Notes under the pieces: generated by a model | What the model was told of the DNA's origin: nothing | Seen by the model: the letters and a program-made list of their open reading frames with translations, nothing else | The model's database searches: none | Position numbers and translations under genes: made by a program | Shown: positions 9,804 through 22,430 of the stretch, piece by piece | How the letters are laid out: every line of letters starts with the position of its first letter | Position numbering within the stretch: position 1 is the first letter of the stretch | Source: a virus | Taxonomy: Duplodnaviria > Caudoviricetes | Direction: 5' to 3' (one strand) | Length of the DNA stretch: 28,068 nt | IMG/VR virus record: IMGVR_UViG_3300025674_000283 | Coordinates: 1-28,068 of that record

Positions 9804-9971
9804 ATGGTAACGGAAGAAACAAAACAAGCTGTAGACGTAATGGCGGCATCAACTGGTATAATGTCGTTGGCGGCTTGGTTGCCTCCCATTGCCAGTTTAT
9901 TTACGATTATCTGGTTAGGTATTCGTATTTATGAATCAAAGACAGTACAGAAGATTGTACACAAGAAGTGA
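9804..9971 (+). CDS. Small membrane protein, holin-like (not in ORF track)
   Basis: 55 aa MVTEETKQAVDVMAASTGIMSLAAWLPPIASLFTIIWLGIRIYESKTVQKIVHKK; SD AAGGA; hydrophobic core, basic C-tail; GTGA overlap with next gene. Confidence 0.8.
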   Translation: MVTEETKQAVDVMAASTGIMSLAAWLPPIASLFTIIWLGIRIYESKTVQKIVHKK

Positions 9972-10594
9972 GACAAGTATTTTGTTTACTAATGATGTTG
10001 TCTTGGGTAACATTAGCGGACAACGCGCAAGAAGGTAGTTTGAATACGTACCACGGTGCTAACTCGACTACGAATAGCAATAACACTACACAAGATGATT
10101 CAGTAAGTAACACCTACAACGGAGTAGGAAGCAGTAGTGAGATACCAGTAGGCTCTGCAATTAGTCCTAGCTATATGAGTAGCGGTATGGACACTTGCCT
10201 TAAAGGTACAGGGGGTTCGCTACAGACAGTAGGTGTAGGGTTTAGCAGTGGTAGCTATAAAGTTGATCCTAACTGTGATAGACGTAGAGATTCTAAGTTG
10301 TTATCAGATTTAGGAATGAAAGTAGCGGCAGTTGCTAGAATGTGTGAGTCAGTAGAAGTATGGCGTTCAATGTTTGTTTCAGGTACTCCTTGCCCTTTGC
10401 TTTTAAACGGTAAGTTAGTTGTAGGTAAACGTGCAGTATTGGCTATGAAGAGACAGCCTGAGATTTACATTCCTGACTACAACAAAGATACAAAAGATTG
10501 GTACAATACTATATTAAACATAGGAGAAGAGGATGCAACTGAAGAAGACACTACTGTCTCTATTATTGCTAAGTTCCGCACTACAAGCAAGTGA
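9968..10594 (+). CDS. Exported cysteine-containing protein of unknown function
   Basis: Signal-peptide-like MRQVFCLLMMLSWVTLA|D, N/S/T-rich linker, then four Cys (DTC, PNC, RMC, GTPCP) and GMKVAAV motif. Confidence 0.8.
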   Translation: MRQVFCLLMMLSWVTLADNAQEGSLNTYHGANSTTNSNNTTQDDSVSNTYNGVGSSSEIPVGSAISPSYMSSGMDTCLKGTGGSLQTVGVGFSSGSYKVDPNCDRRRDSKLLSDLGMKVAAVARMCESVEVWRSMFVSGTPCPLLLNGKLVVGKRAVLAMKRQPEIYIPDYNKDTKDWYNTILNIGEEDATEEDTTVSIIAKFRTTSK

Positions 10595-11381
10595 AAAAGA
10601 TGAGTTACTAAATACCTCTTCTGATATTGTTAATCAGATTACTACAGGTATTAAACTAGTAGGGGCGGCTACAGAGTATGCACATCAAGGAGATGCTTTA
10701 TCGACAGGTAGTCTTTCTACTTCTGCTCATATTAGCGAAGCGCAAGTCGAAGCGTATAATCAAGCTTTAGATAACTTTGTAAATAACTATAAGCCCTACG
10801 GTGATATTAAAGCTGTTTTAGAAAACAAAGCTATGGATGAACTAGACTTGATGGATGAGGCGATAGGTCGTTTTACCGAAGCCGTAGTTGACATGAGTAC
10901 AGTGTTGCAGGTTAATGAAAAGATAGAGGAAGCTTCGACCCCTCAACAAGAAGATGAAGTACAGCAGTTTGTATCTTCAAACCAAGAAATATTAGAAGTA
11001 TCTCAAGAAAGCGTAGATAACTATAATCAATCTGTAGATGACATTGAGACCCATGCTAACAACGCTAGTGCTTACTTAGCTGTAGCAGGTTCAGAAGAAG
11101 CGGTAGCGTTTTTAGAGCAAGGTATTGAGAATGCTAATACTACGGCAGAGCAAACTACTATCTTTTACGATGCTAACGCACAGTGGGTATCTATGGGTTA
11201 CAACACTACACGTAACCTAACTGCTGTGTTCTTAAACGGTAATGATAACATGGGACTTGATTTGTACGTAACAGAAGCTGATATCTTAGCTTTAGGTAGC
11301 GAGTCAGAGTTCTTTCAAACTAGTCCTGTAGGTCAAGGCTATAACTGTTTTATGTACAATGAGGGATGTAACGAACTATGA
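10533..11381 (+). CDS. Exported acidic helical protein of unknown function
   Basis: Signal-peptide-like MQLKKTLLSLLLLSSALQA|S, SD AGGAG at 10522-10526, C-terminal CFMYNEGC pair. Confidence 0.8.
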   Translation: MQLKKTLLSLLLLSSALQASEKDELLNTSSDIVNQITTGIKLVGAATEYAHQGDALSTGSLSTSAHISEAQVEAYNQALDNFVNNYKPYGDIKAVLENKAMDELDLMDEAIGRFTEAVVDMSTVLQVNEKIEEASTPQQEDEVQQFVSSNQEILEVSQESVDNYNQSVDDIETHANNASAYLAVAGSEEAVAFLEQGIENANTTAEQTTIFYDANAQWVSMGYNTTRNLTAVFLNGNDNMGLDLYVTEADILALGSESEFFQTSPVGQGYNCFMYNEGCNEL

Positions 11382-11851
11382 AGCTATCAGAAACTGAGTT
11401 GACTATTGGTGGTGTTAAGTTAAAAGGTATTTATATAGCGGTTGTATTATCATTAGCAACCACAATAGCCTCAGCAGTGTGGACTGCAAGTAGTTTATAT
11501 TCTCGTTTAGCTATCGTTGAAAAGAAAGCATCTGCTGTTAAACCAGTTGTAGAAAAGGTACAGCTTATAGAGCAAAGACTCGAAGACAACGATGTGAGCC
11601 AATTAAAGGGTAAATTAGCCACTTTAAAGACTAGCCTAGATACCCTAGTGGTACAGCAAAAGAACCTCTTAGAATTGAAAGGAGACGTTTCTGAGCTATC
11701 TAAAGATATAGAGTCTATCAAAGGCACTGTGGCTAAGGCTGAGATTATTATTAAGGACATTGGCGATACAGATGCCAAGTTTAAAACATTAACAAAAGAA
11801 GTAGAAGATTTATGGCAGGGTATGGAATACCTGTCTAATCCATTGAAGTAG
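11378..11851 (+). CDS. Membrane-anchored coiled-coil protein (i-spanin-like topology)
   Basis: N-terminal TM IYIAVVLSLATTIASAVWTA followed by heptad-rich coiled coil; ATGA overlap with previous gene. Confidence 0.75.
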   Translation: MKLSETELTIGGVKLKGIYIAVVLSLATTIASAVWTASSLYSRLAIVEKKASAVKPVVEKVQLIEQRLEDNDVSQLKGKLATLKTSLDTLVVQQKNLLELKGDVSELSKDIESIKGTVAKAEIIIKDIGDTDAKFKTLTKEVEDLWQGMEYLSNPLK

Positions 11852-11859
11852 GAGTTAAC

Positions 11860-12150
11860 ATGCCTAAGAAGAAAGATTCAAGACTAGCTAGAGCAGGTGT
11901 ATCTGGCTACAACAAACCTAAGCGTACTCCGAATCATCCTAAGAAGTCACATATTGTTGTGGCTAAAGAAGGCGATAAAGTTAAGACAATTCGTTTTGGA
12001 CAGAAAGGTGCTAAGACAGCAGGTAAACCTAAAGCAGGTGAATCAGCTAAGATGAAAGCAAAGCGTAAGTCTTTTAAAGCTCGTCATGCTAAGAACATTG
12101 CTAAGGGTAAGATGAGTGCGGCTTATTGGGCAGATAAGGTTAAGTGGTAG
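11860..12150 (+). CDS. Small highly basic protein
   Basis: 96 aa K/R-rich, SD AGGAG, motifs IRFGQKG, RKSFKARH, SAAYWADKVKW. Confidence 0.85.
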   Translation: MPKKKDSRLARAGVSGYNKPKRTPNHPKKSHIVVAKEGDKVKTIRFGQKGAKTAGKPKAGESAKMKAKRKSFKARHAKNIAKGKMSAAYWADKVKW

Positions 12151-12159
12151 GAGGTCGGT

Positions 12160-12240
12160 ATGTATAGATACAGCAAACCAAAGAAGACTAAGAAAAAGAA
12201 AGTAACTGTTAAAAGAAAAGGAAGAAAACGTGCCTACTAA
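12160..12240 (+). CDS. 26 aa very basic peptide (not in ORF track)
   Basis: MYRYSKPKKTKKKKVTVKRKGRKRAY; perfect SD AGGAGG at 12149-12154; fills the gap between two basic genes. Confidence 0.7.
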   Translation: MYRYSKPKKTKKKKVTVKRKGRKRAY

Positions 12241-12433
12241 AAGAAAACCTGCTAAGAAGAAGAAGAAGTCTACAGTAAACTCAGCAGGTAACTACACCAA
12301 GCCAACTATGCGTAAGAATCTGTTTAACAAGATTAAAGCAGGTAGTAAAGGTGGTAAGGCAGGGCAATGGTCAGCACGTAAAGCACAGATGCTTGCTAAA
12401 GAATATAAAGCTAAAGGTGGAGGATATCGGTAA
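12230..12433 (+). CDS. Basic protein, DUF5872-like N-terminal half
   Basis: NYTKP..R...KGGKAGQWSARKAQMLAKEYKAKGGGY; family recalled from motif. Confidence 0.8.
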   Translation: MPTKRKPAKKKKKSTVNSAGNYTKPTMRKNLFNKIKAGSKGGKAGQWSARKAQMLAKEYKAKGGGYR

Positions 12434-12687
12434 TGCCTCTAAAGAAACAACAAAAGAGTTTAAAGAAGTGGACTAAGCAGAAGTGGGGTACTAAGTCAGG
12501 TAAGCCTAGTACTCAGGGAAAGAAAGCTACAGGTGAGCGTTACCTTCCCAAGAAAGCTAGAGATGCATTGTCCAAGAAAGAATACGCCGCTACCTCTCGA
12601 AAGAAAAGAGCAGACACTAAGAAGGGTAAGCAACACAGCAAACAACCACGAAAGATAGCTAAGAAAACAGCTAGGTATAGAAAATAA
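12433..12687 (+). CDS. Basic protein, DUF5872-like C-terminal half
   Basis: QKSLKKWTKQKW.TKSG, TGERYLPKKA, KKGKQ; TAATG overlap with previous gene. Confidence 0.8.
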   Translation: MPLKKQQKSLKKWTKQKWGTKSGKPSTQGKKATGERYLPKKARDALSKKEYAATSRKKRADTKKGKQHSKQPRKIAKKTARYRK

Positions 12688-17112: not shown

Positions 17113-17739
17113 ATGACTAATGATATTGTTCGTAAGTTTGTAATACGAGAAGAAGGCTTTCCAATGGAAGGTGATAAAGCTCGTACTTACATTCCAAAGA
17201 AAGATGGGAAAGCTATCGGCAAGTCTGGCTTAACCTTTGGCGGTGGTATCGACATAGGTCAAATGGACTTGAAAAGCTTTATGAAGCTAGGACTGCCTTC
17301 AAACATACAAGAGTCTTTACTACCTTATGTAGGCAAGCAAGGCGAAGATGCGTTAGCTGTTGAAAGAGAGCTTGGTCATTTTAGCTTGCCTTCTAACGTA
17401 GCAATGGACATAACTAATGCTCACATTGATAAAAGTACTAACAAGGTTAAAGACTACTTTAAAGGTATTGACCTGTCACCTGAACAGTTAGCTGTTGGTG
17501 TTTCTCTAGTACATAACTATGGCGATGGTGCTTTGAAGTTTAACACCATGAATGAAATAATGAAAGGGGATATGACGAAAGGCATTCAAATGCTACGTGA
17601 TCCTAACGAGTGGACAAATGAAGAGCTACTTCCTAGACGTAACCGTGAGGCTGATCTTCTGCAATCATATATAGAAAGACAGGCTAAGGCAATGGCACAA
17701 CAGCGACCTCAGCTACTGAATACTGGAGTAATGCAATGA
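17113..17739 (+). CDS. Pesticin C-terminal-type muramidase (lysozyme fold), probably virion-associated
   Basis: FVIREEG, YIP, SGLTFGGGIDIGQ, SLVHNYG, RRNREADLL. Confidence 0.85.
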   Translation: MTNDIVRKFVIREEGFPMEGDKARTYIPKKDGKAIGKSGLTFGGGIDIGQMDLKSFMKLGLPSNIQESLLPYVGKQGEDALAVERELGHFSLPSNVAMDITNAHIDKSTNKVKDYFKGIDLSPEQLAVGVSLVHNYGDGALKFNTMNEIMKGDMTKGIQMLRDPNEWTNEELLPRRNREADLLQSYIERQAKAMAQQRPQLLNTGVMQ

Positions 17740-21800: not shown

Positions 21801-22038
21801 AAACGCAATCACTTACATTGGTGGTTTGTCGTTTGCGGTTGATCCGCTACGTGCTAGTAACTGGGGAGTTGATCCAACTACTGTATTGCTAGGCGCGGCG
21901 GCAGGTAAGTTTAATGATTTAATGGGTGGTATTAGTGGAATAATGTCAGGAAACATTGCACCTGAAGATGTAGTCATGGAAGTCGTAAAAGATGTTGGCG
22001 GTGCTTTCCCAATAATACCTGCTCTCTTGGAGGAATAA
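18835..22038 (+). CDS. Large internal virion (ejection) protein
   Basis: 1067 aa; A/G-rich hydrophobic stretches, GATEATQ, YFP, P.WMSD..FKLIAQLKSF motifs seen in large podovirus ejection proteins. Confidence 0.8.
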   Translation: MSESIGSTAFDTLWDMSDAQFDENISRKPDGIADQVGAGVDLGQALLYRGGQSLAEAFGFADSAFGRAMVEGKEENLREVEMVTAHPLYEDGEFSFRGLIDQVARGAGTVGVALPSLLAAVPAAAIGAKGSAGALVAGGVTSGLMNIGDIGLKAEDMDEAYNASMADIGTGLALGALEPLAAAKFVKAMSPAIKNITPEVQKAINSGNASAFSTAIREQVAQAPSLGRTLVTAGLVSGATEATQDFSTTLAASNATSYWNELDIEEALKESAIEGLIGGILGLPFGVGSSVMSKAQKNQDLSFAKQVDEGIIEFNEDTGAWVKNQEKIPVTETRLGHLYSKYLAPVLGDVPSKIVGKLQTEKSRKLAAKFQSTRGDLGRRLGITPVHAEAMNFKSMYSKGIGTFMTLGVEEAQAVHDHRVMPQDTKEQKDAKNEVYSKFTKEQKKASNELATFLDLTIKNDIKKYGLDETLYEGGTYFPLHGRLDYKKIKENRREFTREALKIAEERGVPLSEIQVDNYIQRIQNQGYEHFGIDADTKALRRFIEETEELVKEEGITREEAEKKAAKKLDKRLGKKSGKGAKVNTQNAVETHRMLSMLPQDFWNNWTNEKSSVQEAMYSYYEMISERLAHVKQFGVNNEKFYREVLEVVQDARERGVAFDINGLMADFANMMNLSQRIPIRNLDVTQGDALRTAQNAVRAGLSVTLLPLSILPSLAEVFVVASRTGKTGKAITTTGKLVSRIIKQQFRHGRGLDFTDATKLVDEGILEDLGITLYELKNTTASRIGDNEIGGRITNIENFFYNLTLTPQFTESLRMTAAILAEQGFRSDLVAYEKAVKEANVDEQLRLGDKFAEAGLNISEAYNWHLRGGKKDKYYREDFKMGILNIIEDTVMRPRMIQKPAWMSDERFKLIAQLKSFAVVFNNVVMKGWYNAMVANGTTEDKLKQAAVIAPYIGMMVATQIMASALREFAKTGDIEKWEDRDAMGHALNAITYIGGLSFAVDPLRASNWGVDPTTVLLGAAAGKFNDLMGGISGIMSGNIAPEDVVMEVVKDVGGAFPIIPALLEE

Positions 22039-22430
22039 TGATAGGCGTAACAGATTTAATTGCAAACATATTCAAACCTGCGGCTAACTTAGTTGACGAG
22101 TTACATACGTCAGATGAGGAGCGCTTGAACGCTAAGAGTAAGATGTTAGAGGTACAGGCGGCGGCAATGCAACAGGTGTTTGATTACGAGACACAAGCGT
22201 TAACTGCTCGTGCTAATATAGTAAACAGTGAGGCTAGTTCAGGTAACTTGTTGGCATCTTCTTGGAGACCAATAACAATGTTAACTTTCTTGGTGCTTGC
22301 TGTTGGAGATTCGCTAGGTCTTCTAGCAACCCCTCTCAGGGATGAGGCATGGATGCTTCTACAACTAGGTCTAGGCGGTTATGTCGTAGGTCGAAGTGGA
22401 GAAAAGATAGCGCAGACTATCAAGAAGTAA
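22038..22430 (+). CDS. Holin, 3TM gene-transfer-agent type
   Basis: LVDELHTSDEER, EASS, SWRP, LLQLGLGGYVVGRSGEK motifs with hydrophobic segments. Confidence 0.85.
   Translation: MIGVTDLIANIFKPAANLVDELHTSDEERLNAKSKMLEVQAAAMQQVFDYETQALTARANIVNSEASSGNLLASSWRPITMLTFLVLAVGDSLGLLATPLRDEAWMLLQLGLGGYVVGRSGEKIAQTIKK

Follow-up and report, generated by a model that had tools for sequence, protein, structure and literature searches.

A coupled and optional three-gene module of predicted exported envelope proteins in aquatic phages and its possible role in cell-surface display

The locus and its genes

The window (the whole stretch of 28,068 nt analysed here, a 28-kb virus record that is about 74% complete) derives from a podovirus whose portal, capsid, and adaptor are of the SU10 type and which also encodes a class II ribonucleotide reductase and its own three-helix holin (22038..22430, + strand; GTA_holin_3TM, PF11351, E=1.9e-11, phrog_3427). 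The closest cultured phages, as judged from the 531-aa tail protein, were Pseudomonas podoviruses at approximately 36% identity. The sole lysozyme of the window has a pesticin-type domain and is located among the ejection-protein genes (17113-17739); no separate endolysin was recognised in the 74% complete record.

Four consecutive ORFs, referred to as A to D and all on the + strand, are located in the SU10-type late operon between the tail fibre gene and a second tail gene. This position inside the tail module, the four reading frames, and their overlaps (GTGA, 62 nt, and ATGA) were re-found as described in an earlier sequence-only reading. Gene A (9804..9971) encodes a 55-aa holin-like membrane peptide with a single helix, gene B (9968..10594, GTG start) a 208-aa exported protein, gene C (10533..11381) a 282-aa exported acidic helical protein, and gene D (11378..11851) a 157-aa anchored coiled-coil protein. 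Searches of Pfam, PHROGs, and NCBIfam placed none of the four in a named family, and B matched only phrog_20531, which is of unknown function. An upstream ATG precedes C in the window (10533-10541), and close relatives start C at MKK two codons later; the B/C overlap, 62 nt in the window, may be 56 nt in relatives.

Export of B and C was assessed using a signal-peptide rule that was passed by 23 of 932 other proteins of at least 200 aa from the same loci. In the window's clade, 71 of 77 distinct B proteins and all 55 distinct C proteins passed, which bears out the signal-peptide-like starts noted earlier; in the CRP-810 clade, where start calls are uncertain, the values were 38/66 for B and 34/56 for C. 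The reported absence of a lipobox was also confirmed, since none was found in 77 B, 55 C, and 43 D proteins of the window's clade or in a scan of the whole window that recovered both positive controls.

B consists of a signal peptide, an N/S/T-rich stretch, an SAxxP linker, a Cys-closed beta-hairpin, and a helical domain. Cys6 lies within the signal, and the mature protein has the four cysteines described previously (Cys77, Cys103, Cys126, and Cys142), of which Cys77 and Cys103 are near-invariant and delimit the hairpin (10196..10276, + strand). Residues 78-95 are nearly uncharged, with a Gly/Ser/Ala face opposite a face of large hydrophobic residues: column statistics for 133 sequences gave frequencies of 0.90-1.00 for small residues at positions 80, 82, 84, 91, 93, and 95, and of 0.85-0.99 for large hydrophobic residues at positions 85, 90, and 92. 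In the monomer model, the hairpin strands had a pLDDT of 66-71 and the helical domain containing Cys126 and Cys142 a pLDDT of 89-96. Judged from the column statistics and the model strands, the hairpin is amphipathic, uncharged, and long enough for a membrane crossing, and its pattern appears to be the one that a barrel subunit contributing two strands to the membrane would show; B is predicted to be the subunit of an oligomeric outer-membrane pore. Pore formers in which each subunit contributes two strands include alpha-haemolysin, through its stem, and MspA. B is like beta-barrel pore formers in its uncharged, Gly/Ser-rich, amphipathic hairpin with strands of about ten residues, but the resemblance is one of pattern only, with no sequence or fold match to a solved structure in monomer searches of the PDB (best Z 2.8). 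A fold search of BFVD returned nine unnamed phage proteins, and the ESM Atlas returned hypothetical clusters only. The N/S/T-rich stretch has a median length of 35 aa here and of 187 aa in another clade, where it reaches 496 aa. B length rises with C length (rho 0.75, n=53), as does the length of the N/T/S-rich stretch (rho 0.74, 37 clusters), both values ignoring kinship; the stretch does not lengthen with D.

C of the window has an Asp+Glu content of 16% and ends in the previously noted cysteine pair (residues 272 and 279), which is clade-specific (54/54 in the window's clade versus 0/56 in the CRP-810 clade). It was modelled as a short helical protein with a pLDDT of 88, for which the fold search gave no specific match (the best, Z 7.0, being generic helical hairpins) and three unnamed phage proteins. 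C has 664 homologues, and the gene is the predicted occupant of a variable cargo slot in which products range from 213 to 965 aa and fall into three groups unlinked by BLAST. Long C proteins have a signal peptide, a variable N-terminal head, often Cys-rich repeats, and an acidic stalk; their types weakly share a C-terminal motif (E=6.6e-4), and one of 12 tested gave a sub-threshold match to NIDO (E=0.0017). The C of the window lacks an adhesin-like domain and could not be linked to the long types.

D has a single hydrophobic 19-mer (residues 17-35) followed by a coiled coil, contains no cysteine, and terminates in NPL, and it is predicted to be an inner-membrane tether. Residues N154 and P155 are invariant in 14 representatives, and an NPL or SPL end is found across all clades. 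Family matches of D were to generic coiled coils and weak, including the Rz-like phrog_7686 (E=0.0012). Two GenBank labels for module proteins were not supported. 'OmpA family protein' for the B of CRP-810 (L001:5824-7632) is unsupported, the B of the window having no Pfam match, and 'lysozyme' was given to the D of CRP-810 and CRP-207 (L002:3292-3873), two proteins without a Pfam match; neither word occurs in the main text of the associated paper.

A contains one hydrophobic 19-mer (residues 22-40), which fits the earlier description of a membrane peptide. In the window's clade, 80 of 101 loci have A immediately before B, as against none of the 226 loci from three other clades, and A is retained where B-C-D is absent. 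Relatives of A adjoin a lysozyme or holin gene in phages KZY1 and Mae-JY29 and in locus L061. The lack of A upstream of B in those clades and its retention where B-C-D is absent rule it out as a fourth member, so the proposed four-gene unit is reduced to three genes, with A as a membrane peptide that stands apart and is linked to lysis. Also outside the module are three small Lys/Arg-rich ORFs of 96, 67, and 84 aa (11860..12687, + strand; phrog_7595, 17747, and 14910, of unknown function), which are kept in loci with and without B-C-D. Their Lys+Arg content is about 30%, many marine phages carry them again in the vicinity of the module and of capsid genes, and contigs of relatives pile up at these positions in one RNA run; DNA-condensing or disruptin-like peptides are a possible identity.

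Coupling, distribution, and absence of B-C-D

Loci were fetched with four B queries and constitute a non-random sample. A gene counted as D-type if its ORF encoded a hydrophobic segment and a C-terminus of the NPL/SPL type, and this test was applied to those of the 299 loci with at least 5 kb downstream of B, named records being excluded from the count. Such a gene was found downstream of B in all 129 loci (61 clusters at 90% B identity), compared with 4 of 134 when the same test was applied upstream of B. A stricter first rule had linked B to D in 184 of 216 loci, the misses being mostly SPL endings or inserted genes; in the relaxed rule the downstream minimum was also raised from 3.8 to 5 kb, which excluded one locus (L352) that has B and C and no D-like gene among the next genes. 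When C was used as the starting point, B was upstream in 62/62 loci and D downstream in 75/75. B-C-D is thus almost certainly a real coupled module of exported proteins, and the claim of a coupled, exported, lipoprotein-free, and undescribed envelope module stands for these three genes.

The order B-C-D is kept in the Roseobacter phages CRP-810 and CRP-207, the pelagiphages HTVC023P and Baldr, and the T4-like phage Mosig. The carriers are aquatic podoviruses and a T4-like myovirus, and their assigned hosts include SAR11 and Roseobacter. The B family comprises 1,094 clusters at 50% identity, and one subclade motif of B was estimated to occur in approximately 7,300 IMG/VR stretches. The reverse search with D retrieved only 12 close relatives and did not reach distant phages. 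A scan of GTDB, for which one divergent member served as the query, matched only the phage-like contig of that member, and none of 14 control genomes. One metatranscriptome contains a contig of 253 nt that matches part of B exactly, which cannot show transcription. In a divergent branch, B occurs by itself (RSP15, RSL1, RsoM2USA, JWAlpha, and JP1; neighbour sequences were examined for RSP15 only).

Five close relatives of the window phage (L397-L401, drawn from 35 loci fetched by a neighbouring tail gene; the three checked were fragments 33-36% complete) have A joined directly to a basic ORF, with B-C-D absent from this site and no substitute gene. The complete genome of HTVC010P is without B, which is present in HTVC023P, HTVC033P, Baldr, and Mosig, all recorded for that same host strain. 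Because these five relatives lack it at this site and HTVC010P lacks B, B-C-D is an optional module of aquatic phages. No description of the module was found in the accessible text of the literature searched (including PMC6775973, PMC11288001, PMC12014285, and PMC7029224), which mostly left out subscription papers and in which supplementary gene tables could name the genes; within that scope, the view that B-C-D is undescribed as a system is supported.

Comparison with spanins and pelagiphage curli

The two-component spanins, of the lambda Rz/Rz1 or phrog_739/812 type, are outlined in the available part of PMC6139136, and B-C-D is not a spanin under the definition given there. The likeness consists of the N-terminal anchor and coiled coil of D, which give it the topology of an i-spanin and that only, a Cys-containing partner, and a late, often lysis-linked location. 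B-C-D differs in having two signal-peptide proteins instead of an outer-membrane lipoprotein, in being optional, and in coexisting with a true pair in some loci. The absence of a lipobox from B, C, and D in the clade and from the window excludes an o-spanin by that mark, and none of A-D combines a lipobox with a C-terminal transmembrane helix as a u-spanin does, the ICBM1 control being recovered. Other podoviruses, one of them marine, have further solutions to the outer membrane: in the portions of text available, the cobavirus u-spanin is a lipobox protein with a C-terminal anchor (PMC6775973) and the phiKT disruptin gp28 is one small cationic peptide (10.1101/515445), both unlike B, C, or D. 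A is not cationic in this manner (K+R 0.11, D+E 0.07), and B-D are neutral to acidic proteins that are either exported or anchored.

Two kinds of small lipoprotein were observed near the module in other loci. The first, a paralogue of the B helical domain that has 70-86 aa and lacks the hairpin, lies directly upstream of B in some 60 CRP-810-clade loci (for example L001:5606-5866); it is unannotated in CRP-810 and CRP-207. The second, a lipoprotein of 56-78 aa that contains a Cys pair, directly follows D in L355 (11071-11274) and in six further loci of this kind, and in six loci it stands just before an Rz/Rz1 pair.

A precedent for a phage-encoded outer-membrane pore and fibre is the curli module of pelagiphages, for which the accessible text of PMC9599517 proposes roles in aggregation, sibling capture, and superinfection defence, and that of PMC9004378 a role in lysis timing. 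From what these texts contain, the curli or type VIII secretion system (CsgG, CsgF, CsgA/B) is like B-C-D in being an optional multigene envelope module that has moved between SAR11 podoviruses and myoviruses, and in pairing an outer-membrane pore with an exported repetitive protein. However, B is not a lipoprotein, B-C-D has the predicted inner-membrane tether D, and no FecR, kinase, or cyclase was seen with it, unlike in the curli module. CsgG (PF03783) was found in 0/47 module-bearing records and in none of A-D, the control being positive in 4 of 14 genomes, and no curli Pfam match was obtained for B, C, or D of the window. B carries N/T/S-rich repeats, and the Pfam curlin check covered the B of the window. 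Since CsgG is found in none of the 47 records, B-C-D is not a curli system; it is analogous but unrelated to that of the pelagiphages.

Possible roles of the module

Tentatively, B-C-D may be a minimal phage-made device, composed of a pore in the outer membrane, a cargo, and a tether in the inner membrane, by which the infected cell is given a new surface late in infection. B would oligomerise through its Cys-closed hairpin to form an outer-membrane barrel, C would be an exported cargo that this barrel retains or lets through, and D would be the inner-membrane tether, its NPL end docking on the helical domain of B. A contact between B and D is suggested because the core of B and the end of D are constant while C is swapped. 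The altered cell might stick to new hosts or particles, or be shielded from rival phages and grazers, and the device would not fuse membranes. The barrel, the protein contacts, the surface exposure, and the function are what we infer from the observed gene coupling, optional presence, rule-based export signals, hairpin pattern, and coexistence with spanins. The cargo-like slot of C, with its length range and swappable heads, and the growth of the N/T/S-rich stretch of B with C suggest display from the sequences. Counting against it are the low monomer confidence of the B hairpin and the C of the window, which is short, helical, and unlinked to the long types; in addition, the spanin-bearing loci all belong to the long-C clade, the module-free relatives are fragments, and the scarcity of spanin lipoproteins and the lysis genes near the module fit lysis instead.

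Somewhat less probable, and on balance doubtful, is a lipoprotein-free spanin-like or lysis-accessory machine, in which D would serve as the i-spanin, the hairpin of B as a fusion-loop-like or barrel anchor replacing the lipid, and C as a bridge, the complex disrupting the outer membrane once the endolysin has acted. Consistent with such a machine are the late-operon position, the topology of D and its weak Rz-like match, a lysis gene at most three genes from the module in at least 93 of 231 loci (a raw count with no control set), and, in the CRP-810 clade, the B-paralogue lipoprotein placed upstream of B like an o-spanin. A canonical spanin lipoprotein was absent from 18 of 19 near-complete module-bearing records in the lipobox scan, and phrog_812 was absent from 44 of 47 module-bearing records and present in three; this absence is not specific, however, because HTVC010P lacks both B and, in the same scan, the lipoprotein. 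Mutual exclusion with Rz/Rz1, a check put forward in the sequence-only reading, fails: intact-looking pairs (phrog_739 + phrog_812; E from 2e-7 to 9e-16) lie about 5 kb or less from B in 11 loci (7 clusters), all of the long-C clade and none of the window's clade. In six loci the order is B-C-D, a small lipoprotein gene, Rz, Rz1, and then a lysozyme, and in L356 another spanin pair and an endolysin directly precede B. A fusion model has no role for C proteins that reach 965 aa and bear variable heads, and JWAlpha has its stand-alone B alongside an o-spanin-like lipoprotein. The proposed spanin replacement is therefore weakened by the coexistence with Rz/Rz1 and by the loss of the module from five relatives with nothing substituted at the site, which also indirectly disfavour any need for B-C-D in outer-membrane disruption.

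Three further explanations were weighed. It is unlikely that B, C, and D form a periplasm-facing complex, never at the surface, that jams receptors or DNA-entry channels or stops progeny from adsorbing to debris, even though the module is optional, highly variable, exported, and spread over unrelated phages of the same hosts, and stand-alone B is located among non-structural genes in JWAlpha and RSL1. Superinfection-exclusion genes are usually early, whereas the module occupies a late operon with no intergenic room in the window for a promoter of its own, and the hairpin pattern suggests membrane insertion. The masking or exclusion option raised previously is nevertheless close to the display reading. 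A lysis-timing sensor, in which C would detect periplasmic or external cues and signal through D to the holin, much as the T4 antiholin RI acts on holin T, is very unlikely. D is a single-pass membrane protein and a holin gene adjoins it in 51 of 231 loci, being of the GTA_holin_3TM family directly after D in other phages, but the neighbouring holin families differ, the holin of the window is 10 kb away, and no likeness to known antiholins was found in Pfam, PHROGs, or NCBIfam. Least probable of all, and close to negligible, is that the proteins are structural components of the virion tail with incidental hydrophobic starts, as the location between tail genes in the window might suggest; the signal-peptide pattern recurs across all clades at far above the control rate, the same module takes unrelated positions in podoviruses and in a T4-like myovirus, and it is absent from close relatives. 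A virion-proteomics paper makes no mention of HTVC or CRP phages.

The many unrelated carriers, together with the spanin genes alongside the module in some of them, argue for a display module rather than a spanin replacement. A more detailed form of the display reading is possible but rather unlikely: an apparently phage-specific, three-gene secretion and display system, common in aquatic viromes, in which B would supply a barrel of two strands per subunit with an Asn/Thr fibre, C a swappable adhesin on an acidic stalk, and D the tether, letting infected SAR11 or Roseobacter cells capture hosts or evade rivals and grazers before bursting. If display is correct, proteins with no named family or solved fold would constitute a new small secretion system and give phages a route to altered cell encounters in dilute water; if the module is a lysis device, it would explain how marine phages that lack spanins get past the outer membrane. 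Among the carriers are phages in culture that infect the most abundant marine bacteria (HTVC023P, Baldr, Mosig, CRP-207, and CRP-810), and cultured phage-host pairs with and without the module on the same strain make both readings testable.

Unusual forms of B were also observed. Stand-alone B genes whose products have long Gly/Asn/Gln-rich N-termini are located outside late operons in phages from soil and wastewater and in one phage-like contig (L008, L378-L381, and L409), and these proteins may be a self-contained pore or fibre. One 52-kb record contains two B copies (G011:C1:11496-12175 and 49203-49870), each with a lipoprotein paralogue, which represent either a duplication or an assembly artefact.
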